Source of the DNA: Bdellovibrionales bacterium | GTDB lineage: Bacteria; Bdellovibrionota; Bdellovibrionia; Bdellovibrionales; UBA1609 | Direction: 5' to 3' | DNA length: 64,000 nt | Assembly: GCA_965261545.1 (NCBI GenBank) | Contig: CBDHDF010000011.1 | Location: forward strand, 128,001 to 192,000 | Shown here: piece by piece, positions 4,503 through 41,643 of the stretch | How positions within the stretch are numbered: the first letter of the stretch is position 1 | Layout of the letters: every line of letters starts with the position of its first letter | The notes under the pieces: model-generated | What the model was told of the DNA's origin: nothing | The model's input: only the letters and a program-made list of their open reading frames with translations | The model's database searches: none | Position numbers and translations under genes: made by a program

Positions 4503-4775
4503 ATGATTATACGCAACTATCAAGAAAAAGATGGCAGGGATCAGAGTGTAAGTGACAAAATAAGTGATGGAACTTGCGACTCTGGTACGCTCTTTGACAA
4601 TTTAGCTTGGTTAACAACTAAAGAAACTGCACGCTACCTTCGCAAAAGCGTCAATGCCATCAGAATTTTGGTATATCGCAAAATTCTGAGAGCAAGAAAG
4701 TTTAGGCGAAGGCTGTATTTCAAAAGAGAAGAGTTGGATATGCTCATTGAAACCTCACAATTTATAGGAGGTTGA
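4503..4775 (+). CDS. Excisionase-like HTH_17 protein, copy 1 (long form)
   Basis: WLTTKETARYLRKSVNAIRILVYRK...LYFKREELD; AAGGAG RBS before ATG 4503; directly upstream of the integrase. Confidence 0.8.
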   Translation: MIIRNYQEKDGRDQSVSDKISDGTCDSGTLFDNLAWLTTKETARYLRKSVNAIRILVYRKILRARKFRRRLYFKREELDMLIETSQFIGG

Positions 4776-5519
4776 AAATGGCAATTTTAACTTATGAAAA
4801 AAATGGAAAACAGCTTTTTCGAGTCTATGTTCAGGGGCGAGGAAAAGTAGATACTTCTTTAAGGGTTCAAAAGAATAAATTCAATATAGAGACCTTTAAG
4901 GATGCGTGCAAAGAAGAGAAAAGGCTTATTAAATCTGTTTCAGATGAGATCAATAGGATCGAAGGACGAGGGTTGAAATGGAGGGATATCATTTATCGCT
5001 GGGAAACCTATGCTTTGCAAGGACTCCTCGGAGATAAACAAAAAGACCCCCATTACATCAAGGACCATGTCAACCGACTGATCCACTATACAAAGCCTTG
5101 GCTTGATTGTGTGGCTTCCGAACTCACTAAGGGGGATGGAAGACTTGTCTTGAGTCAGGCGAAAGAAAGTGGAAGCAAGGAAAGTCTACTGAAAAAAATC
5201 AAATCCTCTGTGAATGTAGTCTTCAAATGGGCGATTGAGGAAAAACTGGTTGTTGGTGTTCACTCAAGCCCTACTGAGGGGGTCAATGTTTCAGATAAGG
5301 TGGAGAAGGTTCCTAAGATTCTGACCTTAGAAGAGATTAAAACCCTTCTCAAAGGGGCTAAAGAAGAGCAGCATCCCTGGTATCATATTTGGTCTTTTGC
5401 ATTTCTTACTGGAATGAGAAGTGGCGAGTTGAAGGCACTACAGTGGAGGGATATTGATTTTGACCGACAAACAATATTGGTATCCAAGTCCTACAATCAT
5501 CGTAAGCAAGTGATAAAAT

Positions 5520-9462: not shown

Positions 9463-9749
9463 AAAGTAGAATGGCAAAGACTCTGGGTGAGTTACTAGAA
9501 ATCCTGCATATGCAGGTTGGAACTGGCTAAATCATTGAGATCACTATGAAAATATTGGATTAAAAGGAAGACTTTGGATTTAGAACGCAATCGAATGGCC
9601 GTCTACCAAGTTTGGGTATGATTGACTCCATGGAGCCAATTACTTCGATCTTTCTTAACTTGTCGCTGTCGCGAAATTAAAAAGGGCCGTTTATGTGCCC
9701 TCATTTGGACTTGGGCTCTGAAGTAGCCTCTTTTTAACTTTCCCTTGTT

Positions 9750-11147
9750 CTACCCACCCTTGAAGCTTGGAGTTGGCATCGTCACCGCTAAATTTCTCAT
9801 AATTTGGTGCAGATTGAACCCCATGGTCGAGCGATACCCCGAAGCCAGTGTGGCCCCATCCCCTTTCATCTTGCTTCTTGCTAATCCAAAGTTTTTGACA
9901 TGCCCTATGAGAGGTTCGACCCCCGACCTGCGATTGTATAATTCTTCTTTCTGGGGGGCTTCGACCTGTTCTTTTACGTTGGCAGGTCTTTGAATTCCAT
10001 CTGCATTTCCCACAACATCTTTGACGAGATTGACGTTGGCTTGTGAATAATACCCCTTGTCTGTTGTAACTGACTCTAAAATATCTTCGCCAAATATTTT
10101 TTGATGTTCTTCCAATATAGCTGGCAATGACTCCTTGTCGTCCATTCTCACAGAAGTGCAAGTATAGGGAACAATAAAATTTCCACCAATCCGCCCGACT
10201 TGGAAGACCCTCCCAAACTCCTTGTCTTTGCCTAACTTCCCCTTTTTGATACAGGCGACCGCACACAATTTGAAGGCAAGGATTTTGCCAGGCTTGATGG
10301 TGTGAGTTCTTACAAAATGGGCCACGTCCAAAAGGTATCTCCAAGCCTTGTCTCTCACTTCTGTGACGGCTTCTCGGTGGTTCCAAGGAAGACTCGCTAG
10401 AGCCTGTGGAGAAAGATTTTCTGCAAACCTTATAAAGGCTTTTAACTCTGACTTTACAAGACTGTGAAGGTCTGAAAATACCTCCCTCTTCTTCTCTAAT
10501 ACACAATTTTTGGCTAGAAAAAAATACTTTCGAGCGGCCTTGATGATGGCTTTGATATCTATGGTTATACCCGATGGTAAGTAGGTCTTCTGCTTTTCTT
10601 GAAGATACGAAAGAATTTTGTAACACTTCTGAGCCAACTTTTTCAAAAGACTGGCATCGGAGGGATAAGCCATATTGGCTTCCTGAACGGTCGAATCGAC
10701 ATCCAAATGAGAGGCGTCTGCAAACCCCAGGGATTGAGCCAAGCGAAGAATATAATCTCCTATTTCTTTGTGAGTCTCTTCCGTCAGTCGATTGCGAAAT
10801 TTTTCTATTTTCGTATGATCGGGACAACACCATTTTTTGAGGATATTTAGACCACAAAAAAGCTGATAACTGGCCGTTTCTTTTATCCGTTGCTCCACCC
10901 CTCGATCCGTGAGTTTGAATAGAACCTGAAGCAGCAGCACGGCTAGATGAACTCTTAAAAAGAGCTTTCTTCCTAGCCACCAAAAACCCTTTGCAGTCGT
11001 GGCTTTTAAGTCGGGCATGACCAGACACGACAGATAGCTCCAATCGACGTGGTTGGCCAGTTGAATCAGAGGATCGGATTCTGTGACGATAATAGATACC
11101 TTGGCAGGGTGGACCTTGGTTTCGAGGCCTTCTGGGCATAAACTCAT
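9750..11147 (-). CDS. DDE transposase (ISNCY/IS5-like)
   Basis: PDHTKI, DVDSTVQE, EFG, TDKGY, RSGVEPLIGH motifs. Confidence 0.88.
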   Translation of the reverse strand: MSLCPEGLETKVHPAKVSIIVTESDPLIQLANHVDWSYLSCLVMPDLKATTAKGFWWLGRKLFLRVHLAVLLLQVLFKLTDRGVEQRIKETASYQLFCGLNILKKWCCPDHTKIEKFRNRLTEETHKEIGDYILRLAQSLGFADASHLDVDSTVQEANMAYPSDASLLKKLAQKCYKILSYLQEKQKTYLPSGITIDIKAIIKAARKYFFLAKNCVLEKKREVFSDLHSLVKSELKAFIRFAENLSPQALASLPWNHREAVTEVRDKAWRYLLDVAHFVRTHTIKPGKILAFKLCAVACIKKGKLGKDKEFGRVFQVGRIGGNFIVPYTCTSVRMDDKESLPAILEEHQKIFGEDILESVTTDKGYYSQANVNLVKDVVGNADGIQRPANVKEQVEAPQKEELYNRRSGVEPLIGHVKNFGLARSKMKGDGATLASGYRSTMGFNLHQIMRNLAVTMPTPSFKGG

Positions 11148-11203
11148 AGCGATAATCCTTTATCATGAGGTGAAACATGGTAATAAGGTTAACAGGAGGC
11201 CCA

Positions 11204-11644
11204 ATGAAAAAGAAGCAAATCATTCAACCAAGAAGGAAAGAACTTGAAAAGGCTATTAGTGATTTTTGTGACCAATATATAAACGATGAGTATAAAAACC
11301 TCTGTCACGGTGTAGTAGCAAGAATGTCTCGAAAAAGACAAGTCCCTTACATGACAGGAAGAGTAGAAATTTGGGCTGCGGGGATTATTCATGCCATTGG
11401 GAGAATTAACTTTCTTTATGATAGCAAGACGTCACCATATGTTTCCATGGATGAGATTGTTGAGCACTTCAACACATCAAAAAGGACAGTGGGGCCAAAA
11501 GCAAAAATCATCATGGATATGTGTAAAATGAACCATTTTGACCCAGAATTCTCTACTCGCTATCTTCAGGAGAGGAGTCCATTTAAAAATCTTATGCAAA
11601 TTGAAAATTATATTTATCAAAAAGACCACCTTGAAGCTGAATGA
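11204..11644 (+). CDS. IS passenger protein (DUF6398-like)
   Basis: WAAGIIHAIGRINFLYD...PY motif; AGGAGG RBS; inside the TIRs of both copies. Confidence 0.7.
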   Translation: MKKKQIIQPRRKELEKAISDFCDQYINDEYKNLCHGVVARMSRKRQVPYMTGRVEIWAAGIIHAIGRINFLYDSKTSPYVSMDEIVEHFNTSKRTVGPKAKIIMDMCKMNHFDPEFSTRYLQERSPFKNLMQIENYIYQKDHLEAE

Positions 11645-11808
11645 TGGATTTCTTAAGTCTATTTCGCGACAGCGACTAACTTATAACTTGTCTAACAAAA
11701 GAGTGATTGATATGGTTATACGCAACTGTCAAGAAGGAAGGTGGCAGGGGTCAGAGTGTAAGTTACAAAATAAGTCACGAAACAAGTGACGGAACTTGCA
11801 ACCCTGGT

Positions 11809-12012
11809 ATGCTCTTTGAAAATTTAGCTTGGTTAACAACTGAAGAAACTGCACGCTATCTTCGCAAAAGCGTCAATGCCATCAGAATTTTGGTATATCG
11901 CAGAATTTTGAGAGCAAGAAAGTTTAGGCGAAGGCTGTATTTTAAAAGAGAAGAGTTGGAGATGCTCATTGAAACCTCACAACATATGGGAGGTTACAAA
12001 TGGCAATTTTAA
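11809..12012 (+). CDS. Excisionase-like HTH protein, copy 2 (short form)
   Basis: Near-identical core to copy 1; overlaps the integrase start. Confidence 0.75.
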   Translation: MLFENLAWLTTEETARYLRKSVNAIRILVYRRILRARKFRRRLYFKREELEMLIETSQHMGGYKWQF

Positions 12013-13166
12013 CTTATGAAAAAAATGGAAAACAGCTTTTCCGAGTCTATGTTCAGGGGCGAGGAAAGGTAGACACTTCTATAAGGGTCCAAAAGAATAA
12101 ATTTAATATAGAGACTCTTAAGGATGCGTGCAAAGAAGAGAAAAGGCTTATTAGAGCTGTTTCAGATGAGATCAATAAGATCGAAGGACGAGGGCTGAAA
12201 TGGAGGGATATCATTTATCGCTGGGAAACCTATGCTTTGCAAGGACTTCTCGGAGATAAACAAAAAGACCCCCATTACATCAAGGACCATGTAAACCGAC
12301 TGCTCCATTATACAAAGCTTTGGCTTGACTGCGTGGCTTCCGAACTCACTAAGGGGGATGGAAGACTTGTCTTGAGTCAGGCGAAAGAAAGTGGAGGCAA
12401 GGAAGGTTCACTAAAAAAAATCAAATCCTCTGTAAATGTAGTCTTCAAGTGGGCTATTGAGGAAAAGCTGGTCGTTGGTGTTCACTCAAGCCCTACTGAG
12501 GGAGTTAATGTTTCAGACAAGGCGGAGAAGGTTCCTAAGATTCTCACCTTAGAAGAGATTAAAACTCTTCTCAAAGGAGCTAAAGAAGAGCAGCATCCTT
12601 GGTATCATATTTGGTCTTTTGCATTTCTTACTGGAATGAGAAGTGGCGAATTGAAGGCATTGCAGTGGAAGGATATTGATTTTGACCGACAAACAATATT
12701 GGTCTCCAAGTCCTACAGCCATCGCAAGCGAGTGATAAAGTGCACCAAAGCTGGTCACTGGCGAAATGTACCCATTTCCAATGACCTTCTGAAGATCATC
12801 ACTGAACTTCAGAGAGATAGTCATTGTGACCCTGAAGGCTTTGTCCTTCCAAGACATGGGACATGGACCAATGGTGAAGCCGGAAAGGTTTTGAGGACAT
12901 TCCTAAAGAAATATAACATAAATCAGCATGTTGTATTTCATACACTCAGAGCCTGTTTTGCGACCCATATGTTGGCTCAAGGGGTCAATCAGGCCACCGT
13001 TATGAAAATTGGTGGATGGAGAGATATTAAGACTTTCCAAATCTACGTTCGGCTCGGTGGGATTGAGGTCAAAGGTGCAACAGAGGTTTTGCAAGTGATT
13101 CCAACCCTTGACTCTCTCGCTCCTAAAGACAATGTAATCGGCTTTCCTTGGCACAAGGGCATATGA
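12000..13166 (+). CDS. Tyrosine integrase copy 2 (intact)
   Basis: R (TGMRSGE), K (CTKAG), HTLR, W (GGW) and Y (FQIY) catalytic residues present. Confidence 0.93.
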   Translation: MAILTYEKNGKQLFRVYVQGRGKVDTSIRVQKNKFNIETLKDACKEEKRLIRAVSDEINKIEGRGLKWRDIIYRWETYALQGLLGDKQKDPHYIKDHVNRLLHYTKLWLDCVASELTKGDGRLVLSQAKESGGKEGSLKKIKSSVNVVFKWAIEEKLVVGVHSSPTEGVNVSDKAEKVPKILTLEEIKTLLKGAKEEQHPWYHIWSFAFLTGMRSGELKALQWKDIDFDRQTILVSKSYSHRKRVIKCTKAGHWRNVPISNDLLKIITELQRDSHCDPEGFVLPRHGTWTNGEAGKVLRTFLKKYNINQHVVFHTLRACFATHMLAQGVNQATVMKIGGWRDIKTFQIYVRLGGIEVKGATEVLQVIPTLDSLAPKDNVIGFPWHKGI

Positions 13167-18430: not shown

Positions 18431-18795
18431 CATATTGAATCCACCCACGGACAGAGAATGAACATCTCTGTCAACTTTGCAGATATGGAGTTTTGGGGTA
18501 CACTCAAAACCCGAGATTCGTAATCCCATGATGAACTATAGTTTACCTGTCCATAGCTGGGCCGTTTTTAGTTCCACATCGCTTCAATCAGTATTTGTCA
18601 CAAAATCAGTCTTAATTTTGTGGAAATTGGCCTCTCTCATGGAGTCAATTTTTTAGATCTTTCTTAACTTATGACTTGTCTAACAAAGGAGTGATTGATA
18701 TGGTTATACGCAACTGTCAAGAAGGAAGATGGCAGGGATCAGGGTGTAAGTTAAAAATTAAGTCACGAGATAAGTAACGAACTTGCGACTCTGAT

Positions 18796-18999
18796 ATGCT
18801 CTTTGACAATTTAGCTTGGTTAACAACTGAAGAAACTGCACGCTATCTTCGCAAAAGCGTCAATGCCATCAGGATTTTGGTATATCGCAAAATTCTGAGA
18901 GCAAGGAAGTTTAGGCGAAGGCTGTATTTCAAAAGAGAAGAGTTGGAGATGCTCATTGAAACCTCACAACATATGGGAGGTTACAAATGGCAATTTTAA
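18796..18999 (+). CDS. Excisionase-like HTH protein, copy 3
   Basis: Near-identical to copies 2 and 4. Confidence 0.75.
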   Translation: MLFDNLAWLTTEETARYLRKSVNAIRILVYRKILRARKFRRRLYFKREELEMLIETSQHMGGYKWQF

Positions 19000-20150
19000 C
19001 TTATGAAAAAAATGGAAAACAGCTTTTCCGAGTCTATGTTCAGGGGCGAGGAAAGGTAGACACTTCTATAAGGGTCCAAAAGAATAAATTTAATATAGAG
19101 ACTCTTAAGGATGCGTGCAAAGAAGAGAAAAGGCTTATTAGAGCTGTTTCAGATGAGATCAATAAGATCGAAGGACGAGGGCTGAAATGGAGGGATATCA
19201 TTTATCGCTGGGAAACCTATGCTTTGCAAGGACTTCTCGGAGATAAACAAAAAGACCCCCATTACATCAAGGACCATGTAAACCGACTGCTCCATTATAC
19301 AAAGCTTTGGCTTGACTGCGTGGCTTCCGAACTCACTAAGGGGGATGGAAGACTTGTCTTGAGTCAGGCGAAAGAAAGTGGAGGCAAGGAAGGTTCACTA
19401 AAAAAAATCAAATCCTCTGTAAATGTAGTCTTCAAGTGGGCTATTGAGGAAAAGCTGGTCGTTGGTGTTCACTCAAGCCCTACTGAGGGAGTTAATGTTT
19501 CAGACAAGGCGGAGAAGGTTCCTAAGATTCTCACCTTAGAAGAGATTAAAACTCTTCTCAAAGGAGCTAAAGAAGAGCAGCATCCTTGGTATCATATTTG
19601 GTCTTTTGCATTTCTTACTGGAATGAGAAGTGGCGAATTGAAGGCATTGCAGTGGAAGGATATTGATTTTGATCGACAAACAATATTGGTCTCCAAGTCC
19701 TACAGCCATCGTAAGCGAGTGATAAAATGCACTAAAGCTGGTTACTGGCGAAACGTACCCATTTCCAGTGACCTTTTGAAGATTATCACCGAGCTTCAGA
19801 AAGATGGTCACTGTGACCCTGAAGGCTTTGTCCTTCCAAGGCATGGGACATGGACCAATGGTGAAGCTGGAAAGGTTTTGAGAGCATTTCTAAAGAAATA
19901 TAACATAAATCAACATGTTGTATTTCACACACTCAGGGCTTGCTTTGCGACTCACATGTTAGCTCATGGGGTAAATCAAGCCACCGTTATGAAAATCGGT
20001 GGCTGGAGAGACATTAAGACTTTCCAGATCTACCTTCGGCTTGCTGGGGTTGAGGTCAAAGGCGCAACAGAGGTGTTGCAAGTGATTCCAACTATTGACT
20101 CTCTCGTTCCTAAAAACAATGTGATCGACTTTCCTTTGGCGCAAGGTTAA
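18987..20150 (+). CDS. Tyrosine integrase copy 3 (intact)
   Basis: All catalytic motifs present; one amino-acid difference seen versus copy 4. Confidence 0.93.
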   Translation: MAILTYEKNGKQLFRVYVQGRGKVDTSIRVQKNKFNIETLKDACKEEKRLIRAVSDEINKIEGRGLKWRDIIYRWETYALQGLLGDKQKDPHYIKDHVNRLLHYTKLWLDCVASELTKGDGRLVLSQAKESGGKEGSLKKIKSSVNVVFKWAIEEKLVVGVHSSPTEGVNVSDKAEKVPKILTLEEIKTLLKGAKEEQHPWYHIWSFAFLTGMRSGELKALQWKDIDFDRQTILVSKSYSHRKRVIKCTKAGYWRNVPISSDLLKIITELQKDGHCDPEGFVLPRHGTWTNGEAGKVLRAFLKKYNINQHVVFHTLRACFATHMLAHGVNQATVMKIGGWRDIKTFQIYLRLAGVEVKGATEVLQVIPTIDSLVPKNNVIDFPLAQG

Positions 20151-23634: not shown

Positions 23635-23957
23635 CAAAAACTCCTTAAATGCTCTAAAAACACTATTTCAGAATTTCCCTTGTTCATAACTCAAAAGGAA
23701 ATCCCTTCTGTTGCTGGCTTCTTCAAATGAAGGTTTTCGATCAGTATTTGTCACAAAATCCATTTTATATTTTGTGGCAAATCGGCTTCCCATGTGCTCT
23801 TCATGGAGCTAATTCTTTCGATTTTTCTTAACTTATAACTTGTCTAGTAAAGAAGTGATTGATATTATTGCAAACAACTGCCAGGAAGAAGATGGCAGGG
23901 ATCAGAGTGTAAGTTAAAAATAAGTCACGAGATAAGTAACGGACTTGCGACTTTGAT

Positions 23958-24161
23958 ATGCTCTTTGACAATTTAGCTTGGTTAACAACTGAAGAAACTG
24001 CACGCTATCTTCGCAAAAGCGTTAATGCCATCAGGATTCTGGTATATCGCAGAATTTTGAGGGCAAGAAAGTTTAGGCGAAGGCTGTATTTCAAAAGAGA
24101 AGAGTTGGATATGCTCATTGAAACCTCACAACATATGGGAGGTTACAAATGGCAATTTTAA
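23958..24161 (+). CDS. Excisionase-like HTH protein, copy 4
   Basis: Near-identical to copies 2 and 3. Confidence 0.75.
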   Translation: MLFDNLAWLTTEETARYLRKSVNAIRILVYRRILRARKFRRRLYFKREELDMLIETSQHMGGYKWQF

Positions 24162-25312
24162 CTTATGAAAAAAATGGAAAACAGCTTTTCCGAGTCTATG
24201 TTCAGGGGCGAGGAAAGGTAGACACTTCTATAAGGGTCCAAAAGAATAAATTTAATATAGAGACTCTTAAGGATGCGTGCAAAGAAGAGAAAAGGCTTAT
24301 TAGAGCTGTTTCAGATGAGATCAATAAGATCGAAGGACGAGGGCTGAAATGGAGGGATGTCATTTATCGCTGGGAAACCTATGCTTTGCAAGGACTTCTC
24401 GGAGATAAACAAAAAGACCCCCATTACATCAAGGACCATGTAAACCGACTGCTCCATTATACAAAGCTTTGGCTTGACTGCGTGGCTTCCGAACTCACTA
24501 AGGGGGATGGAAGACTTGTCTTGAGTCAGGCGAAAGAAAGTGGAGGCAAGGAAGGTTCACTAAAAAAAATCAAATCCTCTGTAAATGTAGTCTTCAAGTG
24601 GGCTATTGAGGAAAAGCTGGTCGTTGGTGTTCACTCAAGCCCTACTGAGGGAGTTAATGTTTCAGACAAGGCGGAGAAGGTTCCTAAGATTCTCACCTTA
24701 GAAGAGATTAAAACTCTTCTCAAAGGAGCTAAAGAAGAGCAGCATCCTTGGTATCATATTTGGTCTTTTGCATTTCTTACTGGAATGAGAAGTGGCGAAT
24801 TGAAGGCATTGCAGTGGAAGGATATTGATTTTGATCGACAAACAATATTGGTCTCCAAGTCCTACAGCCATCGTAAGCGAGTGATAAAATGCACTAAAGC
24901 TGGTTACTGGCGAAACGTACCCATTTCCAGTGACCTTTTGAAGATTATCACCGAGCTTCAGAAAGATGGTCACTGTGACCCTGAAGGCTTTGTCCTTCCA
25001 AGGCATGGGACATGGACCAATGGTGAAGCTGGAAAGGTTTTGAGAGCATTTCTAAAGAAATATAACATAAATCAACATGTTGTATTTCACACACTCAGGG
25101 CTTGCTTTGCGACTCACATGTTAGCTCATGGGGTAAATCAAGCCACCGTTATGAAAATCGGTGGCTGGAGAGACATTAAGACTTTCCAGATCTACCTTCG
25201 GCTTGCTGGGGTTGAGGTCAAAGGCGCAACAGAGGTGTTGCAAGTGATTCCAACTATTGACTCTCTCGTTCCTAAAAACAATGTGATCGACTTTCCTTTG
25301 GCGCAAGGTTAA
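24149..25312 (+). CDS. Tyrosine integrase copy 4 (intact)
   Basis: All catalytic motifs present; nearly identical to copy 3. Confidence 0.93.
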   Translation: MAILTYEKNGKQLFRVYVQGRGKVDTSIRVQKNKFNIETLKDACKEEKRLIRAVSDEINKIEGRGLKWRDVIYRWETYALQGLLGDKQKDPHYIKDHVNRLLHYTKLWLDCVASELTKGDGRLVLSQAKESGGKEGSLKKIKSSVNVVFKWAIEEKLVVGVHSSPTEGVNVSDKAEKVPKILTLEEIKTLLKGAKEEQHPWYHIWSFAFLTGMRSGELKALQWKDIDFDRQTILVSKSYSHRKRVIKCTKAGYWRNVPISSDLLKIITELQKDGHCDPEGFVLPRHGTWTNGEAGKVLRAFLKKYNINQHVVFHTLRACFATHMLAHGVNQATVMKIGGWRDIKTFQIYLRLAGVEVKGATEVLQVIPTIDSLVPKNNVIDFPLAQG

Positions 25313-26455: not shown

Positions 26456-27226
26456 TTAATTTTTTATCTTGACAAGTCGGTTTGAAGCTTCCTTCAATCG
26501 GTAGCTTTTTCCCTCAAATTTTAATAGTTGGCTGCAGTGGAGAAGGCGATCCAGGATGGCAGAGGCCACGGTATTATCGCCCAAACACTTTCCCCAGCCC
26601 TCAATAATGCGATTGGAGGTAATAAGAGTGCTTTTTCTCGCTGAGTATCGATCCAGAATGATTTCCTGGAAGTCATCGCAAGCCTCTGGCGGAATGCGCT
26701 TTCTAAGAAAAAGATCATCAATGATCAACAGGTCCACATGGATGAGTTGGGTGTAGAACCTCTTTCTGCGCCCCAGCTGCCTGGCCTCAAAGAGATTTTC
26801 AAAGAGCTTGTGAGCTTCTTGATACAAAACCTTGTAATTTGATATGGAACAGACCTTGGTGGCTATAGCTTTTGCAATGTGGCTTTTTCCAGTTCCAGGG
26901 GAGCCAATAAGCAAGGCTCCCTCCCCCTGCTTGATGAACTTCAAGTTCATTAATTCCAAGATCATTGGCTTGGGTATTTTTGGGTTAAAATTCCAATCAA
27001 AGCCGGTGAGGGTGGACTCTTCCGTGAGCTTGGATGCTTTGAGGAGTCTCTCACATTTTTTGCTTTTCTTGAAATCCTTTTCATCCTGTAAGAGCAATGA
27101 GAAGGTCTCTTGGAAGTTTTGTTGGTTCTGTGTGTGTTGGTAACTTCGAGCCTCAAATGTTTCAAACATGCCTATAAGCTTAAGGCTTTTGAGAGTCTCT
27201 TGTATTTCTGTAGGTGACATTGGCAT
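26456..27226 (-). CDS. istB: IstB AAA+ ATPase
   Basis: GSPGTGKSH, LLIIDD, ITSNR, AILDRLLH motifs. Confidence 0.92.
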   Translation of the reverse strand: MPMSPTEIQETLKSLKLIGMFETFEARSYQHTQNQQNFQETFSLLLQDEKDFKKSKKCERLLKASKLTEESTLTGFDWNFNPKIPKPMILELMNLKFIKQGEGALLIGSPGTGKSHIAKAIATKVCSISNYKVLYQEAHKLFENLFEARQLGRRKRFYTQLIHVDLLIIDDLFLRKRIPPEACDDFQEIILDRYSARKSTLITSNRIIEGWGKCLGDNTVASAILDRLLHCSQLLKFEGKSYRLKEASNRLVKIKN

Positions 27227-27269
27227 TGTGATTGCTCCTTTCCTCTAGAAGAGGGGTTGGGGGGGTGGA

Positions 27270-29201
27270 TTAAGTAAGGTTGGTGCTAGGCTGAGGGTGT
27301 AAGGGTGAGTGGTAGATTTCGTTGTTGGCATGTAAATCCCAGTAGATGGCATACTCGGATGGTGGTCGAATGATGTCGTGGTCTTGGGTGAGGTGGGATT
27401 CCATCTTTTTCTCATCCACAGGGGGCTGTAGTTCCTCAACAAGCCTTTTAAAGACCCTAAGAGATAAGACCCCTCTGCTCACAGCCTGAATGGCTGCTTT
27501 TTCAATAAGATCAGAGTGATATTTTTTAGCCAAGGACACCACCCCACGCATCTGCCTGTTTCCAACTCTCTCATCCACCCTGAGTAATGACTGACAAAAA
27601 GCTTTTGTTTGAGGGCCAATCTGACCCGCATCAGCTAAAATATTTTCTACATGGCGAGATGGATTATAAACACGATCTTTGTCTAGCAAAGAGAGACTCC
27701 CCGGGAGAGTGGCTTTTTGGTGGCGGCGGATAACACTCATCGTGGCAGGGTCCATAATCTCTATGTCTTTATCATAAATACGCACAATGACTTGGCTCTT
27801 TAGATCAGAAGGGTAGGCGCAATAGTAACTGTTTCCCACTTGAATGAGCCCATCGTCTGCAACTGTTCGTATCTCTTGTTTAAAAAAATCAAATTTCTTT
27901 TGGGGGAGCTTTTTGAGAAAGGGGCTCTCTTCTTCAAACATCTCAGAAACGACTCGCTTGGTGCGACCATGGACCCGAGGGCGAGCCCAAGTGTGCTCCC
28001 AGTGCATGAGCCACTCATTTTGCTCCTCAATGGTTTTAAATGTACGACCCTTCAGTGCTGTGTCCTGGGTGTGTTGAATGGCGTGCTCAACGGTTCCTTT
28101 CCTATCGGGGTCACGAACTCTTGCCGGGTCAGCAACGACCCCGTAGTGAGTCAGTACAGCGCTATAAACGGCGTTCAGCGTTGGCTCATAGATATCTGGC
28201 TTAATAACACCTTCCTTGAGATTGTCTAAGACGACATATTGAGGGCAGCCCAAAAAATAATGAAAAGCCTCCTCATGGAGTCTGCTCCACGTCTCTTGGC
28301 TGGACTTCCAAACAACCTTGCGAAAAGAGGCACGAGAGTACTTGAGGGTCATCACAAAAAGGCGAGGCCGCCTATATTTGCCTGTCCGGGGGTGAACAGT
28401 CAGAGCCCCTTGGCCATAATCCACTTGGGCTTCCTCTCCGGGGGGAAAATCCAAGCGATCATAGCGTTTGGGAGTACTCTTCTTCAGCTTCCTTACAAAT
28501 TTTTTCACGCTGTCGTAGGAGTGAGAAAAACCAAATTTCTCCACTAAATCTTGGTAGATGGCCATTCGATTGCGCTCTAAGTTCAAAGCCTGATTTTCAA
28601 TCCAAGCCCTGTGGGGCTCACAAGCCGACTGATGACATAAGGGGCGTTGAGAGGTTTTATCTTTAAGAGATTTTTTCAATCCAGGTGGTTCTATACAGTC
28701 CGTGGATCCAGTTTCTGTGGGAGCAGCCATCGGTTCCACCATGGTTGTGGATGGGCGCATGAGGCAGGCGGAGGAGTGCATGGAAGCCCCATCAGACACG
28801 ACAAGACACGCTGAGCCTGATCCTATAGGGGAAGATGGAGGCGTTTCTAAGGGGGGTGTGGCTTCCCCTAGAAGAACCTGCTGATTGAATTCTGTGGAGG
28901 AGGCCGAAACTTCCTTGGGCTTTTCGAACTGGGCCACAGGAAGGCTTGGAGGCTCCGCAGAGCAAATTTCAGGAGAACATGAAGATGAACATGACTCTGC
29001 TTCTGAGCACACCGAAAAGGCTGGAGATTTTGGCTCTATACCTCCTGTACGCCCCTTTTTGGCAATGACCCTATGGGCTTTCGCATACTCTGAAACCGTA
29101 GATCGACCTACATGTAGCCTTTTCGCTATTTTACGAAATGAGTGACCTGCTATAATTAATGTTAATATCTCTTCTTGTTTTTGTTTATTCAAGACGTTCA
29201 T
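27270..29201 (-). CDS. istA: IstA transposase with long low-complexity linker
   Basis: N-terminal HTH, PGEEAQVDYG, DNLKEGV, KGTVE motifs. Confidence 0.9.
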   Translation of the reverse strand: MNVLNKQKQEEILTLIIAGHSFRKIAKRLHVGRSTVSEYAKAHRVIAKKGRTGGIEPKSPAFSVCSEAESCSSSCSPEICSAEPPSLPVAQFEKPKEVSASSTEFNQQVLLGEATPPLETPPSSPIGSGSACLVVSDGASMHSSACLMRPSTTMVEPMAAPTETGSTDCIEPPGLKKSLKDKTSQRPLCHQSACEPHRAWIENQALNLERNRMAIYQDLVEKFGFSHSYDSVKKFVRKLKKSTPKRYDRLDFPPGEEAQVDYGQGALTVHPRTGKYRRPRLFVMTLKYSRASFRKVVWKSSQETWSRLHEEAFHYFLGCPQYVVLDNLKEGVIKPDIYEPTLNAVYSAVLTHYGVVADPARVRDPDRKGTVEHAIQHTQDTALKGRTFKTIEEQNEWLMHWEHTWARPRVHGRTKRVVSEMFEEESPFLKKLPQKKFDFFKQEIRTVADDGLIQVGNSYYCAYPSDLKSQVIVRIYDKDIEIMDPATMSVIRRHQKATLPGSLSLLDKDRVYNPSRHVENILADAGQIGPQTKAFCQSLLRVDERVGNRQMRGVVSLAKKYHSDLIEKAAIQAVSRGVLSLRVFKRLVEELQPPVDEKKMESHLTQDHDIIRPPSEYAIYWDLHANNEIYHSPLHPQPSTNLT

Positions 29202-29367
29202 CCTTCCCTCCCAGGTTGTTTTCTAGAAGGTATTTTACAATACGCCTTGTCAGATATTAAATTTTAAATGGCCTGGTTTGCCCGCCCACAAATGGCCTGG
29301 TTTGCCCTCCCCTCCGGGCCTCGATGCGATAACTAGTCGCTGTCGCGAAATAGACTTAAGAAATCCA

Positions 29368-29808
29368 TCATTCAGCTTCAAGGTGGTCTTTTTGATAAAT
29401 ATAATTTTCAATTTGCATAAGATTTTTAAATGGACTCCTCTCCTGAAGATAGCGAGTAGAGAATTCTGGGTCAAAATGGTTCATTTTACACATATCCATG
29501 ATGATTTTTGCTTTTGGCCCCACTGTCCTTTTTGATGTGTTGAAGTGCTCAACAATCTCATCCATGGAAACATATGGTGACGTCTTGCTATCATAAAGAA
29601 AGTTAATTCTCCCAATGGCATGAATAATCCCCGCAGCCCAAATTTCTACTCTTCCTGTCATGTAAGGGACTTGTCTTTTTCGAGACATTCTTGCTACTAC
29701 ACCGTGACAGAGGTTTTTATACTCATCGTTTATATATTGGTCACAAAAATCACTAATAGCCTTTTCAAGTTCTTTCCTTCTTGGTTGAATGATTTGCTTC
29801 TTTTTCAT
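29368..29808 (-). CDS. IS passenger protein (DUF6398-like), copy 2
   Basis: Identical protein to 11204-11644. Confidence 0.7.
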   Translation of the reverse strand: MKKKQIIQPRRKELEKAISDFCDQYINDEYKNLCHGVVARMSRKRQVPYMTGRVEIWAAGIIHAIGRINFLYDSKTSPYVSMDEIVEHFNTSKRTVGPKAKIIMDMCKMNHFDPEFSTRYLQERSPFKNLMQIENYIYQKDHLEAE

Positions 29809-31321
29809 TGGGCCTCCTGTTAACCTTATTACCATGTTTCACCTCATGATAAAGGATTATCGCTATGAGTTTATGCCCAGAAGGCCTCGAAACCAAGGTC
29901 CACCCTGCCAAGGTATCTATTATCGTCACAGAATCCGATCCTCTGATTCAACTGGCCAACCACGTCGATTGGAGCTATCTGTCGTGTCTGGTCATGCCCG
30001 ACTTAAAAGCCACGACTGCAAAGGGTTTTTGGTGGCTAGGAAGAAAGCTCTTTTTAAGAGTTCATCTAGCCGTGCTGCTGCTTCAGGTTCTATTCAAACT
30101 CACGGATCGAGGGGTGGAGCAACGGATAAAAGAGACGGCCAGTTATCAGCTTTTTTGTGGTCTAAATATCCTCAAAAAATGGTGTTGTCCCGATCATACG
30201 AAAATAGAAAAATTTCGCAATCGACTGACGGAAGAGACTCACAAAGAAATAGGAGATTATATTCTTCGCTTGGCTCAATCCCTGGGGTTTGCAGACGCCT
30301 CTCATTTGGATGTCGATTCGACCGTTCAGGAAGCCAATATGGCTTATCCCTCCGATGCCAGTCTTTTGAAAAAGTTGGCTCAGAAGTGTTACAAAATTCT
30401 TTCGTATCTTCAAGAAAAGCAGAAGACCTACTTACCATCGGGTATAACCATAGATATCAAAGCCATCATCAAGGCCGCTCGAAAGTATTTTTTTCTAGCC
30501 AAAAATTGTGTATTAGAGAAGAAGAGGGAGGTATTTTCAGACCTTCACAGTCTTGTAAAGTCAGAGTTAAAAGCCTTTATAAGGTTTGCAGAAAATCTTT
30601 CTCCACAGGCTCTAGCGAGTCTTCCTTGGAACCACCGAGAAGCCGTCACAGAAGTGAGAGACAAGGCTTGGAGATACCTTTTGGACGTGGCCCATTTTGT
30701 AAGAACTCACACCATCAAGCCTGGCAAAATCCTTGCCTTCAAATTGTGTGCGGTCGCCTGTATCAAAAAGGGGAAGTTAGGCAAAGACAAGGAGTTTGGG
30801 AGGGTCTTCCAAGTCGGGCGGATTGGTGGAAATTTTATTGTTCCCTATACTTGCACTTCTGTGAGAATGGACGACAAGGAGTCATTGCCAGCTATATTGG
30901 AAGAACATCAAAAAATATTTGGCGAAGATATTTTAGAGTCAGTTACAACAGACAAGGGGTATTATTCACAAGCCAACGTCAATCTCGTCAAAGATGTTGT
31001 GGGAAATGCAGATGGAATTCAAAGACCTGCCAACGTAAAAGAACAGGTCGAAGCCCCCCAGAAAGAAGAATTATACAATCGCAGGTCGGGGGTCGAACCT
31101 CTCATAGGGCATGTCAAAAACTTTGGATTAGCAAGAAGCAAGATGAAAGGGGATGGGGCCACACTGGCTTCGGGGTATCGCTCGACCATGGGGTTCAATC
31201 TGCACCAAATTATGAGAAATTTAGCGGTGACGATGCCAACTCCAAGCTTCAAGGGTGGGTAGAACAAGGGAAAGTTAAAAAGAGGCTACTTCAGAGCCCA
31301 AGTCCAAATGAGGGCACATAA
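29789..31321 (+). other. Overprinted stop-free reading frame across the type-A transposase (also at 9691-11223, minus strand)
   Basis: 510 codons without a stop in the -1 frame on the same strand; transposase codons avoid T before AA/AG/GA-initial codons. Confidence 0.55.
29865..31262 (+). CDS. DDE transposase (ISNCY/IS5-like), copy 2
   Basis: Identical protein to 9750-11147. Confidence 0.88.
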   Translation: MSLCPEGLETKVHPAKVSIIVTESDPLIQLANHVDWSYLSCLVMPDLKATTAKGFWWLGRKLFLRVHLAVLLLQVLFKLTDRGVEQRIKETASYQLFCGLNILKKWCCPDHTKIEKFRNRLTEETHKEIGDYILRLAQSLGFADASHLDVDSTVQEANMAYPSDASLLKKLAQKCYKILSYLQEKQKTYLPSGITIDIKAIIKAARKYFFLAKNCVLEKKREVFSDLHSLVKSELKAFIRFAENLSPQALASLPWNHREAVTEVRDKAWRYLLDVAHFVRTHTIKPGKILAFKLCAVACIKKGKLGKDKEFGRVFQVGRIGGNFIVPYTCTSVRMDDKESLPAILEEHQKIFGEDILESVTTDKGYYSQANVNLVKDVVGNADGIQRPANVKEQVEAPQKEELYNRRSGVEPLIGHVKNFGLARSKMKGDGATLASGYRSTMGFNLHQIMRNLAVTMPTPSFKGG

Positions 31322-31902
31322 ACGGCCCTTTTTAATTTCGCGACAGCGACTAACTAGTTCCTGTCCAGGGAAGAAAGTTAAGTAGTTTTAAGTATTTACA
31401 TGCCTTCCCTTTAGATTTTATGCTTTAAAATGGAGTCCATCAAACATAATCCGTGTAAATTCAGTTACTTACATAAAACGGAAAAATAAAATAAGTTCCC
31501 CCCCCTCTCTTGACGAACCTTTCACAGCCCCTCCCTTTCAGTGACTTATGTGGCTATCAACTGGTTACTTGATATGAGAGGAAGAGTTGGATCAACCTGT
31601 GTTTCCACCGTGGTGATTTCAAACCTCCTTCAGGGAAATAACATTACGTTGCGCATCAACTTCAAAAAATACTTGACGTGTTTTTTCAGAGAAATAATTT
31701 TTGATATTTTATTCTTCATTTATTTTTTATGTAGGTTTTAGGAGGCGTGGGAACCTCTCTATGAGGTAGAATTCTTATCCATGTTCTCCGAGAACCTCTC
31801 TGATTTTTTTCTTCTTAAAAGACATCCTTGCTCACTTTTTTCCCTCAAAAAAACGTATGTTAATATAAAAATTAAAGAGAAACTTTCACCAAAGGGGGGA
31901 CT

Positions 31903-33267
31903 ATGCGCCATTTGAAGAAGACACAGTTGGGACTCTTTTCCCAATATCCTAACCACCAACTCAGTACAGAATTGCAGCAAATTAATAACATCATTGATCG
32001 CCATCCAGAGTTTGCCCATATGGTTCATGAAGACCTTGTTAAAGAAAAGAAAGATTCTGGTGATATTGGTATGACATCGGAGCAAGTTCTCAAGGTGGCT
32101 ATTCTTAAATCCATAAGAGGTCTTTCCTATCGTGCGTTAGCCTTTAATCTTGTCGATTCAGTATCCACCAGAGCTTTTCTGGGCCTTGAATTGGAAGAAA
32201 ATTACGCTCACTCCACCTTACAGGACTTGATTGTTCAAATAAGTGAAGAAACTTGGGGAATTATTAGCGCCTCTTTAGTTTCAGATGCAAGAGATCAAAA
32301 GATTGAGCCGTGTAAGAAAATGAGATTGGACAGTACAGTGACGAAATCAAATATTCATCATCCAACGGATGCATCGCTTTTATATGACTGCATAAGAGTT
32401 ACAGAAAGAGAATTTAAAAAAGTTCGTAAAAATGTCATGAAAGATTTTTGGCGACTTATTTCAAGAGAAGATCTTAAGAGAGCAAAAACCTTGCTTTACA
32501 AAATTAATAATTCCAAAAATGATGCGGAAAGACTACCTTGCTATAAGGAGCTTTTAAAAATCGCTACCAAATTGAACAAAGGATTACCTGATACCATCAG
32601 AAAGATAAAAAAAGAACAAAAATGTGTGAAGATGAATGCTTTGAAAAAGAGTCTAAAACAGTTAGAAAATGTTGCCTTCTACCTGGAAAAAATCATCTTT
32701 CAAACTCAAAAAAGAGTTATTGAGGGGAAAAAAGTATCTTCTGAAAAAAAGGTCCTATCCATCTTTGAACCGCATACAGACATTATTGTAAAGGGGCAAA
32801 GAGAAGTCGAGTTTGGGCATAAAATCTTTCTGACCTCAGGGCAAAGCAACATGATTTTAGATTGTCAGATCCCTGATGGCAACCCCGCAGACTCTGATAT
32901 GTTTTTAAAAGTTATGAATTCAGTGACACAAACCTATGGGGCTTGCCCTGTAAAAGTAAGTGCAGATGGTGGGTTTGCTTCAAAAGAAAATCTTGAAGAG
33001 GCCAAAGAGATGGGGGCTAAAGATGTTTGCTTCCCAGAAAAAAAAGGAATGAAAATATTAAAGATGGTTAAAAGTGCTTGGGTCTTTAAAAATCTTCTCA
33101 ATTGGAGAGCCGGAATAGAGGCTGTTATTTCATTCCTTAAGAGATGTTTTGGTATGAGAGTTGCTTACTGGAAAGGGCATGATGGTTTTAAGAGGTATGT
33201 AAAGAATGCCGTTTGTGCCTATAATTTTGTTGTCTTGGCAAGACATGAATTATCAACTGTCACCTAA
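31903..33267 (+). CDS. ISNCY-like DDE transposase
   Basis: RLDSTV, HHPTDASLL, EFGHK, ADGGF, WRAGIEAVIS motifs. Confidence 0.88.
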   Translation: MRHLKKTQLGLFSQYPNHQLSTELQQINNIIDRHPEFAHMVHEDLVKEKKDSGDIGMTSEQVLKVAILKSIRGLSYRALAFNLVDSVSTRAFLGLELEENYAHSTLQDLIVQISEETWGIISASLVSDARDQKIEPCKKMRLDSTVTKSNIHHPTDASLLYDCIRVTEREFKKVRKNVMKDFWRLISREDLKRAKTLLYKINNSKNDAERLPCYKELLKIATKLNKGLPDTIRKIKKEQKCVKMNALKKSLKQLENVAFYLEKIIFQTQKRVIEGKKVSSEKKVLSIFEPHTDIIVKGQREVEFGHKIFLTSGQSNMILDCQIPDGNPADSDMFLKVMNSVTQTYGACPVKVSADGGFASKENLEEAKEMGAKDVCFPEKKGMKILKMVKSAWVFKNLLNWRAGIEAVISFLKRCFGMRVAYWKGHDGFKRYVKNAVCAYNFVVLARHELSTVT

Positions 33268-37397: not shown

Positions 37398-38891
37398 CAG
37401 CATATAATATATAAAAGCGTAGTCCCAATGGATGGATCAAAACTGGCCATTTGTGGGAGGAAATAATTCTTATTTAGTTCCTGTCCAGGGAAGAAAGTTA
37501 AGTAGTTTTAAGTATTTACATGCCTTCCCTTTAGATTTTATGCTTTAAAATGGAGTCCATCAAACATAATCCGTGTAAATTCAGTTACTTACATAAAACG
37601 GAAAAATAAAATAAGTTCCCCCCCCCCTCTCTTGACGAACCTTTCACAGCCCCTCCCTTTCAGTGACTTATGTGGCTATCAACTGGTTACTTGATATGAG
37701 AGGAAGAGTTGGATCAACCTGTGTTTCCACCGTGGTGATTTCAAACCTCCTTCAGGGAAATAACATTACGTTGCGCATCAACTTCAAAAAATACTTGACG
37801 TGTTTTTTCAGAGAAATAATTTTTGATATTTTATTCTTCATTTATTTTTTATGTAGGTTTTAGGAGGCGTGGGAACCTCTCTATGAGGTAGAATTCTTAT
37901 CCATGTTCTCCGAGAACCTCTCTGATTTTTTTCTTCTTAAAAGACATCCTTGCTCACTTTTTTCCCTCAAAAAAACGTATGTTAATATAAAAATTAAAGA
38001 GAAACTTTCACCAAAGGGGGGACTATGCGCCATTTGAAGAAGACACAGTTGGGACTCTTTTCCCAATATCCTAACCACCAACTCAGTACAGAATTGCAGC
38101 AAATTAATAACATCATTGATCGCCATCCAGAGTTTGCCCATATGGTTCATGAAGCAATGCCGTTTCCTTAAGCCACCACACCCCTCTGCCTCTGCGTTAA
38201 GCTATTTCTTTTAAAAGAACTCCCAGCCCTTTTGATAGACCTTTCATAGCTTCTTTTGAAGTGCCTCCTCTTCTCCATTGAAATCTTCATCAGCAACTTT
38301 ATCTGCTTCCTAAATTTCTGATAGTGTTAGCTGACAATTAAAATGCCCCACCGTCGCCAATGAAAAGTGGCCACTTTTCAGAGGAGGACCTATGGTGATT
38401 TTTGGCATTGTCAACCGAGACGCATATAATCAATTGATATTACTCATAAAAAGGCTCCGAGCTGATAAGAACTCCTTTTGGGTTCTTGTCGACCTGGAAA
38501 GGGGCTCCGTGTTGGAGAGTCCTTCCATGACAGCCTATTCAGGTTCCATATTTGTCATTTGTAGACTGTTTCTGGATTTCAATGAGGTTAAATATATAGT
38601 CAAGAAAAGCCTGTTTAGGCTGTGCCCATTTTCTAAAGTATTTAAATTCCACAAGATTCCAACATTTGCCTCAATTTTCATGGAATTTCTTTCTGAAGAC
38701 AGGCTTCCCTTAAAGCCGTCGCCAATTAAAATGTCCCACTTTCAATATGGAGGTTGTCGCCAATGAAAAGTGACCAATCTTCAGGGAGTGTTCAAATACT
38801 AGACAATGAAGTCTCTTCTTCTGATATAGATACTAAGCTCACAGAGTCCCTCCCTTTTGCAACTCAAAAGGTTAGCAATGAGGAGGATCTT

Positions 38892-40358
38892 ATGATTAGT
38901 CAATACACTTTCGGCCGCATTCGTGACCTGAGTCACAGTGGTAAAAATAAGACAGAAATATCTCGTGAATTAGGGATCAATCGTAAGACGGTGCGCAAGT
39001 ACTGTGAGTCCAACACCCCACCGAAGTACAAGGCGAGGTCCAAAAGAACTCGCCCAGATCCCCTTAATGGATATATGGATCGGGTGAAGTACTTTTTGAA
39101 GTTGAACCCAAGTAACACCGCCCGTGAAATATATGAGCTATTAGTTGAGGAGGGTTATCGTGGGAGTGAGAGAACGGTTCAGAGAAGAGTTTGTGAGATT
39201 CTTGGTTCTCGCCCCAAGGAGCGTTTTTTCAGCCAAAGATATGATCCTGGAGAACAGGCTCAGTTTGATTTTAAGGAGAAGGTTGCTTTACCATTTGCCG
39301 ATGGTGTTCAGATCGTTCATCTCCATTTTGGAACATTGCCTTGTAGTGGCACCTGTTGGGTTCGTGCCTACCCCTTTCTTGTCTATGAGTGTTTCATCGA
39401 TGGGGTGCATGCTTTTTTTGAAAAGATAGGTGGGATGAGTGCGAACATCCGTATTGATAATTTATCTCCCTGTGTGAAGAAAGTTCTTAAAGGAAATCAG
39501 CGAATTTACACCCAATCTTTTGATCGAGCCATCCAATACTATGGATTTAAGGTTCTTCCCTGCCGCGCAGGGAAGGGCTCTGACAAGGGAGATGTGGAGC
39601 GTGATATTCGAACCTTCAGTTCTCGGATAAAAAATATTGTTAGAAACAAAGGAATTGTTTTTAAAGACTGGGATCATTTGAATCAGTTTTTAGAGTCTTA
39701 TATGGATCAGCATCAGAGTGACTCCACCAAATCTCGCTTTGAGGAGGAGGCCAAAGTTCTTAAGCCTTTGCCTCCACGAGATGAAGATATTCTCTGTAAG
39801 GTGAATATTTGTCAAAGTAATGGTTATGGGACTTTGAGAATAGGTAAAACCACATATTCCATACCTGATGAGGTGATCCAAGCTCCCTGTAAAACCGTAC
39901 AGGGTCCCTATCATGTCACGATCTATCGTGCAGGAGGGAAGCAAGAAATTGTCGCTCGCCATCAAAGAAAACCTGATGGGGAGCATAGTCTTCTTCTTGA
40001 ACATATCCTTCCCTCTTTAGTTCGTAAGCCGCAAGCCATGGTAAGATGGGCTCACCGATCCATTCTTTTTCCAACAAATGTGTTTGAAAATTTTTATCAA
40101 TACCTCAAGCAACAAGATTCAAGCCGTGCCGAGCATGAATATTTAAGAGTTATCAACTTGATTCAGCATGTGAGTTGGCAGGACTTATCTACAGCCATGG
40201 AGCTTCAATTAGAAAGTCGTGAGATTTTCGACTTTAAATCCATAAAAGATTTGCTCTTAGGCAATCCCACCAAAATTAATTTGAATGACCAACAAAAACC
40301 ACTTCAACCTAGATTGTCTCAATATGACAGTCTTGTTCCAAACATAGGAGGTTCTTAA
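38892..40358 (+). CDS. istA: IstA transposase
   Basis: HTH (ISRELGINRKTVRKY), PGEQAQFDF, IDNL, DKGDVE; AGGAGG RBS before ATG 38892. Confidence 0.92.
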   Translation: MISQYTFGRIRDLSHSGKNKTEISRELGINRKTVRKYCESNTPPKYKARSKRTRPDPLNGYMDRVKYFLKLNPSNTAREIYELLVEEGYRGSERTVQRRVCEILGSRPKERFFSQRYDPGEQAQFDFKEKVALPFADGVQIVHLHFGTLPCSGTCWVRAYPFLVYECFIDGVHAFFEKIGGMSANIRIDNLSPCVKKVLKGNQRIYTQSFDRAIQYYGFKVLPCRAGKGSDKGDVERDIRTFSSRIKNIVRNKGIVFKDWDHLNQFLESYMDQHQSDSTKSRFEEEAKVLKPLPPRDEDILCKVNICQSNGYGTLRIGKTTYSIPDEVIQAPCKTVQGPYHVTIYRAGGKQEIVARHQRKPDGEHSLLLEHILPSLVRKPQAMVRWAHRSILFPTNVFENFYQYLKQQDSSRAEHEYLRVINLIQHVSWQDLSTAMELQLESREIFDFKSIKDLLLGNPTKINLNDQQKPLQPRLSQYDSLVPNIGGS

Positions 40359-41140
40359 TGAATCACGAAGAACTTATAGGTTCTCTTAAAAAACTCCGAC
40401 TTCCAGCGATGGCGGATGAATATGTTGCAACGGCTAGAGTTGCCGAAAAAACAAAAAAGACGTATGAACAGTATTTAGGTATACTCGTTCAAAATGAGCT
40501 TGCTGACAAGCATTCCCAGAGAGTGAAAAGATTGCTTAAGGGGGCCAAGCTTCCTCAACTTAAATCACTCCAAACTTATAACTTCCAGAAAAGAACGGGA
40601 GTGACAGCTCAGCAAATTAATTGGATGGCAGAGGGAGAGTGGGTCAGAAAAGCCTGTAATGTTGTGTTTTACGGAAGCTTTGGAATGGGGAAAAGTCATT
40701 TGGCCATGTCCCTAGTTCGTTCACTCTGTGAACAAGGCTATCGATGTTTATGGGTCACCACTCATGAACTTATTGAAACAATGCGTGAAAGCAAGAAAGA
40801 ACTCTCATTGAATGCTCTTTTTAAGAAATTAGACCGTTTTGATCTTATTGCTTGTGATGAACTTGGCTATACAGCTTCCTGCACAGAGGGTGCTGATCTT
40901 TTCTTTCAATTCATATCTCAGCGATATGAAAGGAAAAGTCTCATGATCACTACAAACTTAACTTACTCTGAATGGGATAAGGTGTTTCTTAACCCTATTA
41001 CCACCGCTGCTGCTGTTGATCGAATTATTCACAACTGTGAAACCCTCAACATTGAAGGAAAAGAAAGTTGGAGAACCGAATCGGCAAAAGCCAAGTCTAA
41101 ACAGAGCAAAGAGGAAAGTTCAACCAAAGAAGTTCATTAG
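40358..41140 (+). CDS. istB: IstB ATPase
   Basis: GSFGMGKSH, DELGY, ITTNL, AAVDRIIH. Confidence 0.92.
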   Translation: MNHEELIGSLKKLRLPAMADEYVATARVAEKTKKTYEQYLGILVQNELADKHSQRVKRLLKGAKLPQLKSLQTYNFQKRTGVTAQQINWMAEGEWVRKACNVVFYGSFGMGKSHLAMSLVRSLCEQGYRCLWVTTHELIETMRESKKELSLNALFKKLDRFDLIACDELGYTASCTEGADLFFQFISQRYERKSLMITTNLTYSEWDKVFLNPITTAAAVDRIIHNCETLNIEGKESWRTESAKAKSKQSKEESSTKEVH

Positions 41141-41643
41141 AGATCCCCACTTTTGGGGAAGGAACTCGCCAGTTATCCACAAAATTTATCCACAGCAGCA
41201 CTGCGTTGCTAGACATCGGGGTCACAGCCGCAGTGTCGCCATGGATAAATTTATGGATAACTGGCTTTTACCGTACTATTTGCTCGTCACTCTCGCGGAG
41301 CTTTAGACATTAGCTGCGCCAAGGAATCCTGAAAAATACTCCATTTACCTCTGCCATAGGGCTGAAGGATGCATTTGGGGTCATGCCAAAAGTGGTGGGC
41401 AGAAAATCATTCCTCAGAATCTTGTGGCATAGTCCGAGTTAAATGATGAGCAAAATAAAGACACTTGACTAAACTCTGAACGAAGAATAACTAAATCAGT
41501 ACATCATCAACTGGCCGTTTTTCATTGGCGACGGCTTCTAAAAATGGCCAATTTTAATTGGCGCCTAACAGATAGAGCCCCGCAACAAAAAGGGGGATGC
41601 TATCCATTATGAAATCAAGAATCAGTTTAAAGTTAGGTTTTTT

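Follow-up and report, generated by a model that had tools for sequence, protein, structure and literature searches.

Culex narnavirus 1 carries, on the strand opposite to its essential gene, a reverse ORF that has to be intact and for which ribosome protection has been proposed (PMC8316113). Double-synonym tests in a second report indicate that this reverse ORF encodes no functional protein (PMC8155312). Insertion sequences (IS) are known for programmed −1 frameshifting, which is described for IS1, IS3, IS5 and IS630 and for the "DUF772" cluster of IS1182 (PMC5009743, PMC3711429); PMC3196728 concerns IS frameshifting of the same kind, with two partial ORFs. In Pseudomonas aeruginosa, olg1 and olg2 are antisense, genus-restricted and, as reported, under purifying selection (PMC8850804).

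The locus considered here lies in a 64,000-nucleotide stretch of DNA from a Bdellovibrionales bacterium (the window, in which all positions are counted). It is an IS whose transposase gene is enclosed by a stop-free −1 frame on the same strand. Like the ambigrammatic narnavirus reverse ORF, the frame is stop-free over nearly the whole of an essential gene, without homologues and without detectable protein constraint, and the narnavirus ORF may be regarded as its closest analogue. The narnavirus, however, is an RNA virus of eukaryotes with its second ORF on the opposite strand, whereas here a bacterial DNA transposon carries both frames on one strand and mRNA; the −1 start, moreover, is apparently placed over the transposase ribosome-binding site, and the reverse frames contain 22–25 stops. 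With the frameshifting IS, the element shares two frames on one strand that control transposase output, this control being a proposal in the present case. Those IS fuse two partly overlapping ORFs, whereas here an intact transposase ORF is fully enclosed by an unconserved frame. The orfA/orfB split of the frameshift type is absent, the transposase being a single 465-codon ORF, and the slippery signal is not specific to elements with an open frame. As with olg1 and olg2, an annotated gene is overlain by a second ORF of great length. Unlike them, the −1 frame lies in sense orientation, is found over transposases with as little as about 25% identity, and has a protein product in which no constraint is detectable. 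Among the marks of an overprinted gene, a conserved long frame and initiation signals are present, and purifying selection on residues is not seen.

The open-access literature searched yielded no same-strand, full-length, unconstrained ORF over a transposase, and no description of such a layout in bacteria. Any newness would be that of the layout and not of the element.

The insertion sequence and its surroundings

The features of the element are the following.

29330..29335, no strand: left target-site duplication TAACTA (family target TANNTA)
29336..31350, plus strand: whole insertion sequence, 2015 bp, IS5/ISNCY-like, with a passenger gene, delimited by inverted repeats and a 6-bp target duplication
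29336..29351, plus strand: left terminal inverted repeat, 16 bp
29368..29835, minus strand: divergent passenger ORF, DUF6398 (Pfam PF19935, E 1.5e-38)
29846..31321, plus strand: stop-free −1 "cover" ORF, 491 codons, with an alternative start at 29834 and open from 29789
29851..29856, plus strand: transposase Shine–Dalgarno (SD) sequence AAAGGA, within the first cover codons (from the sequence; pairing −5.4 kcal/mol)
29865..31262, plus strand: DDE transposase, 465 aa, DUF772 and DDE_Tnp_1 (Pfam profiles)
31335..31350, minus strand: right terminal inverted repeat
31351..31356, no strand: right target-site duplication TAACTA
9662..11676, minus strand: second complete copy of the element, one base different, with the transposase at 9750..11147 and the −1 ORF at 9691..11223

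The start entered for the cover ORF was placed by comparison with relatives, and the DUF6398 ORF probably begins at its second Met, near 29808. The family target TANNTA often begins with TAA or TAG, so that a stop codon flanks the ends of the element.

The transposase matches PF01609 and PF05598 over their cut-offs. Its residues D149, D151, D363 and E411 are invariant in 27 sequences and presumably represent the acidic triad residues of DDE enzymes. AlphaFold2 predicts a confident fold (pLDDT 79.7), for which Foldseek returned no match at E ≤ 0.001. The nearest NCBIfam models are those of IS5 and ISNCY, and some sources use the label "IS5 family transposase". The element resembles both families in its DUF772 and DDE_Tnp_1 domains, terminal inverted repeats and target duplication, but it scores below the cut-offs of NF033578 (IS5; 174.3 against 275 bits) and NF033593 (ISNCY, ISDol1-like; 141.3 against 325 bits) and differs in its 6-bp TANNTA duplication. 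A 6-bp duplication is not known from the IS5 subgroups, whose duplications differ in length, and that of ISDol1 is probably 6–7 bp. The element itself is an ordinary-looking DDE IS of a clade without a name.

The passengers of related elements are DUF6398, GIY-YIG or DUF6788 genes, or none; with such variation, the passenger has no connection with the second frame. One cluster, made up of 22 passenger ORFs, represents a small GIY-YIG nuclease (4/4 members scanned), carried by elements that include L044, L047, L050, L053, L074, L082, L083 and L100; in many of these GIY-YIG elements, a REP-like hairpin lies immediately inward of the right end.

Insertion sequences crowd the window (26456–29201, 31903–33267, 38621–41167 and repeats elsewhere). 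They include the istA/istB pair of an IS21-like element, an ISNCY transposase that passes its cut-off, and several nested or truncated copies. The element at 29336..31350 sits directly between two other insertion sequences. Four diverged repeat copies (89–97%) lie at 4570–4870, 11792–12093, 18779–19080 and 23941–24242, and the repeat leads into 387–388-codon ORFs at 12000, 18987 and 24149. Together they are a paralogous gene array broken by IS insertions.

An open −1 frame over the transposase

The transposase (29865..31262, plus strand, 465 codons) is enclosed by a same-strand −1 ORF from 29789 to 31321, which comprises 510 codons from its first ATG and ends 59 nt beyond the transposase stop codon. 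The ATGs at 29834, 29846 and 29873 that the preliminary description lists are all present. Over the transposase, the −1 frame contains no stop, compared with 32 in the +1 frame and 22, 23 and 25 in the reverse-strand frames. That description also reckoned with dozens of stops by chance, and 20,000 in-gene synonymous shuffles bear it out: 28.0±3.6 stops are expected, the lowest shuffle has 15, and the depletion is confirmed. The proposed use of C for T at junctions where a stop would arise is complete, with T-ending codons at 0 of 132 positions before AA, AG or GA codons and at 124 of 332 elsewhere in the gene.

Of the genome's 1133 ORFs with 400 codons or more, none but the five copies of this transposase has 0–1 stops in the −1 frame, and the next lowest ORF among those listed has 10. 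The 11 other long window ORFs tested, transposases included, are all closed, in agreement with the claim that no other transposase here has such a frame. Ordinary genes have slightly fewer −1 stops than shuffling predicts. The one reported difference between the two window copies was found at position 30134, where G/A leaves Glu unchanged in the transposase and exchanges Asp and Asn in the −1 frame.

Openness among relatives

Many homologues keep the frame open as well. From 240 confirmed metagenome loci, 80 with 45–66% identity were kept; over the matched region, 55 of them have no −1 stop, two have 1–2, and 23 have at least four. After dereplication at 90% and selection for an intact 5' end, 47 open elements (the window element included) and 16 closed ones remain. 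Across 21,041 codons, the open elements have 3 stops where 975 would be expected; the closed ones have 332, with 401 expected. The +1 frame is at expectation throughout. In a distant subclade, whose first two members share 24–26% identity with the window transposase, 7/7 elements have 0–1 stops in the −1 frame. A held-out search, carried out after the pattern had been defined, produced 13 new loci, 11 without a stop and two with one. Named plasmid-borne relatives, including ISGlo4, are closed in 8/8 cases (8 of 41 matching records; 22–38% identity). The closest proteins have 79–80% identity.

At the junctions at risk, C and T stand at 2347:3 in open elements and at 126:257 in AT-rich closed ones. 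T before AC or AT codons stays at 46% in open elements, so TA as such is not avoided. The pattern spans 33% to 63% GC. The selection for openness that the preliminary description proposed is thus strongly supported, and it is virtually certain that the −1 frame is under selection to stay open. The open frame is real, selected and widespread in this IS5/ISNCY-like clade without a name.

In a quick IQ-TREE tree, open and closed states are interleaved with at least five forced changes of state, so some clades can do without the −1 frame. The simplest reading of this tree, whose root is not secured, would be that descendants of an open ancestor lost the frame several times. L117 is classed as closed by the cut-off, with 3 stops against 15 expected. 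The GC-rich closed elements L036–L041, L046, L056, L061 and L062 retain some preference for C at the junctions at risk (0.86, compared with 0.60–0.75 elsewhere), which may be the trace of a recently lost open frame. A decayed single copy on contig C7, lacking the left end, has three differences: two missense changes and a transposase-silent −1 stop; a lone copy in this state is uninformative. On the same contig, the left end of a family member lies at G000:C7:160259 with no transposase match alongside, a possible non-autonomous derivative. No relative was found in viral contigs.

The 6-bp flanks on the left and right differ in 21 of 25 open loci and in 2 of 10 closed loci, kinship being ignored in this count, and open loci lie on shorter contigs than closed ones. 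Open elements may more often be multi-copy and collapsed in assembly, a comparison uncorrected for kinship or GC.

A start of its own

The openness extends upstream. Within 24 nt upstream of the transposase start, the −1 frame of open elements has no stop in 329 codons; the two other frames have 18 in 376 and 16 in 329. The −1 frame offers an ATG, GTG or TTG between −37 and −13 in 42 of 47 open elements, whereas the other frames do so in 11 and 3, and in 20 of the 47 this −1 codon lies exactly at −22, the mode. The same count in the 16 closed elements gives 8, 5 and 7, with no frame bias. An upstream in-frame start at any distance is found in 46 of 47 open elements, the exception being L054. 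Held-out loci with a matched 5' end have an in-frame start at −16 to −28 in 8/8 cases, and the first two members of the distant subclade have an ATG at −22.

Weak start codons appear to be compensated. The cover starts are GTG or TTG in 23 of 42 elements and ATG in 19; each of the 23 GTG/TTG starts has an SD of −2.7 kcal/mol or better, a strength reached by 37% of background positions, whereas the ATG starts are mostly SD-poor, that of the window element included. Leaderless initiation at the SD-poor ATGs was considered and is not supported, the −10 spacing being scattered. In one subclade, a −10-like hexamer lies 27–28 nt ahead of the cover start, which would accordingly come first on the message. 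Five elements (L043, L048, L089, L094 and L098), all with a divergent DUF6788 passenger, apparently use an in-frame ATG near −82 instead; four of these elements have an operator-like inverted repeat immediately ahead of it. This ATG is possibly a regulated, near-leaderless cover start.

In the window element, the ATG at 29789, from which the preliminary description counts the ORF, is only the first one after the upstream stop and sits within the divergent DUF6398 ORF. The true start is likely ATG 29846, 19 nt upstream of the transposase start (491 codons), or 29834. Counted from ATG 29846, the transposase SD spans the second to fourth codons. That the frame is translated had also been claimed. 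The conserved in-frame start and its SD compensation speak for this indirectly, at the level of sequence, and the −1 frame is very probably translated from a start of its own.

Proposed role of the −1 frame

Two roles had been suggested, a basic regulator or toxin and translation-based control of transposase output. The second survives in outline, with a mechanism of our own inference. The chances are somewhat better than even that the −1 frame is a "cover" (escort) ORF, which would compete with the transposase start and cover the message. The cover start would be transcribed first, so that the leading ribosome would tend to enter the −1 frame. With the cover start 16–31 nt upstream of the transposase start, an initiation complex on it would cover the transposase SD, 9–15 nt downstream. 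The two starts would then be mutually exclusive and share ribosomes, giving less transposase per message. Ribosomes in the cover frame would traverse the whole 1.4 kb and, even with little initiation at the transposase start, shield the message from nucleases and from Rho-dependent termination; a stop anywhere in this frame would bare the remainder of the gene. The element would in this way separate the amount of transposase from the completeness of the message.

Rho causes polarity on untranslated mRNA, which is also subject to decay. Rho is present in 10/10 host genomes tested with open frames and in 4/5 with closed frames (the miss is a partial genome of 0.8 Mb), a distribution that is compatible with the cover model and does not discriminate. 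Closed elements have a stronger transposase SD (−7.4, against −5.1 in open elements) and a start region predicted to be less unpaired (0.35 against 0.49), as if they followed the ordinary solution, kinship and GC confounding both comparisons. Many cover starts look weak on paper, and it does not follow that they win against the transposase ATG. Since open elements are apparently more often multi-copy, simple repression is not suggested.

How far the frame is kept

Over the final 30 transposase codons, counted in 41 elements, the −1 frame has 2 stops where 46.9 are expected. With L095 and L099 left out, in which the transposase frame itself is apparently shifted, the frame ends between 19 nt before and 332 nt after the transposase stop; only two ends are early, both within 19 nt of that stop. 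Because the frame is kept to the last transposase codons, the passage of ribosomes over every one of these codons appears to be what is preserved. Rho needs 60–100 nt for loading, and Rho alone predicts a tolerance of late stops that is not seen, so message decay or read-through must be added to the model.

Ribosomes in the cover frame might also carry the transcript to or past the right end, so that downstream genes stay expressed and insertions are better tolerated. Beyond the transposase stop, the −1 frame has 29 stops in 1100 codons, compared with 53 in 1088 and 50 in 1077 in the other frames, and it outruns them (median 23.5 codons, against 13.5 and 7; n=38). In several elements it ends exactly at the TAA or TAG of the terminal target. 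The plus strand of the element has no terminator-like site that could be found, which also suits such an anti-polar role, as does the apparently higher copy number of open elements. The depletion past the stop is mild, however (29/1100 against about 50/1080), and the terminal target stop is in phase with the −1 frame no more often than by chance (12/11/11). The left 110–570 nt, often with a passenger on the opposite strand, are not covered at all, and this role is rather unlikely.

The −1 product

A functional −1 protein, basic, disordered and loosely constrained, acting as a regulator, nucleic-acid binder or toxin, would need full-length openness and a conserved start just as much as a cover frame. 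Selection on its residues was assessed in 18 independent open pairs, and transposase-silent changes that alter the −1 product occur as often as doubly silent ones: 485/1581 against 53/164 for C/T changes and 161/891 against 45/285 for A/C changes. The omega of the −1 frame, computed by hand from these counts, is about 0.9 with a rough range of 0.6–1.4. The dual-frame test thus gives the preliminary description no support for a selected protein; it rules out strong selection on −1 residues and is compatible with weak selection.

At matched transposase identity, fourfold-site identity is equal in open and closed pairs. The identity of the −1 products is 0.459 in open and 0.452 in closed pairs in the 75–80% bin, and 0.709 and 0.636 in the 85–90% bin, which holds three pairs each. 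Identity slightly exceeds the stop-free shuffle null in open elements (0.246 against 0.228), which would favour a protein, but the closed group has a similar excess (0.215 against 0.201), and the best-conserved −1 columns are forced by transposase codon pairs. Net charge is +46.9 against +47.4 in the stop-free shuffle null, and hydropathy is likewise equal; this match makes the richness in Arg, Ser and Gln a by-product. A proline deficit was rejected as a trait of the −1 product, being a generic junction bias present in closed genes too.

None of 39 −1 products matches Pfam, the C-terminal tails have nothing in common, and AlphaFold2 finds no fold (pLDDT 36, pTM 0.16). A protein search gave one match among 5126 candidates, a frameshift chimera that also matches the transposase. 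A profile of the 39 products has 126 matches in 1.84 billion representatives; of the 125 new ones, 44 match the transposase profile as well, and a small number are −1 calls of full length. In the ESM Atlas, the −1 product matches only transposase-labelled clusters (0.94–0.95), a result that wrong frames can give, and nothing above 0.80 among clusters without a name; neither outcome counts as evidence. A product valued for its bulk properties should, moreover, tolerate late stops, which are not tolerated. The suggested basic regulator or toxin is accordingly unlikely. With openness and start kept and no constraint detectable on the protein, selection probably acts on uninterrupted translation as such and not on its product, a conclusion held with good confidence.

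Further alternatives

Frameshifting offers another reason for an open frame: ribosomes that slip into −1 would make long, junk-tailed products instead of short inhibitory DNA-binding fragments. PMC5009743 reports −1 frameshifting in IS1, IS3, IS5 and IS630 elements, and slippery heptamers occur about 2.9 times per gene. These heptamers are equally frequent in closed genes, however, and synonymous conservation does not peak at any one place to mark a site; a sink should be indifferent to stops close to the C-terminus, and the upstream open stretch and the start codon are left unexplained. The frame is therefore improbable as a sink for slipped ribosomes.

Ribosomes entering at −22 could instead unfold the transposase start region, with openness avoiding re-initiation at internal starts. 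The conserved spacing of the start would agree with such an activation, and the predicted fold of the window element pairs part of the start region, but open elements are predicted to be less paired there than closed ones (unpaired 0.49 against 0.35) and openness would be needed in the first codons only, which makes activation very unlikely.

Chance, a by-product of codon bias or avoidance of the element's own TANNTA target can practically be dismissed, for although ordinary genes are mildly below the −1 shuffle expectation, there are 0 stops against a minimum of 15 in 20,000 shuffles and 3 against 975 across elements, the +1 frame is at expectation, T before AC or AT is not depleted, and the pattern holds from 33% to 63% GC.

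Meaning for the insertion sequence family

Stop depletion and a good start codon, even together, do not prove a protein-coding overlapping gene, and the present frame is a warning in this respect. On balance, it is fairly probable that an escort ORF, full-length and on the same strand, has arisen in this widespread IS clade with no other job than to be translated; it would take up the leading ribosome, ration the transposase start and shield the message as far as the final codon. If so, the integrity of the mRNA would be uncoupled from the output of protein, and the layout may join frameshifting, antisense RNA and start-site sequestration as a way of controlling transposase. Whether translation of a junk frame can have a function apart from its product would become testable here by single silent mutations. 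The element would then show, in nature and in a bacterium, some 490 codons kept open for the sake of translation itself, with conservation across transposases as little as about 25% identical.
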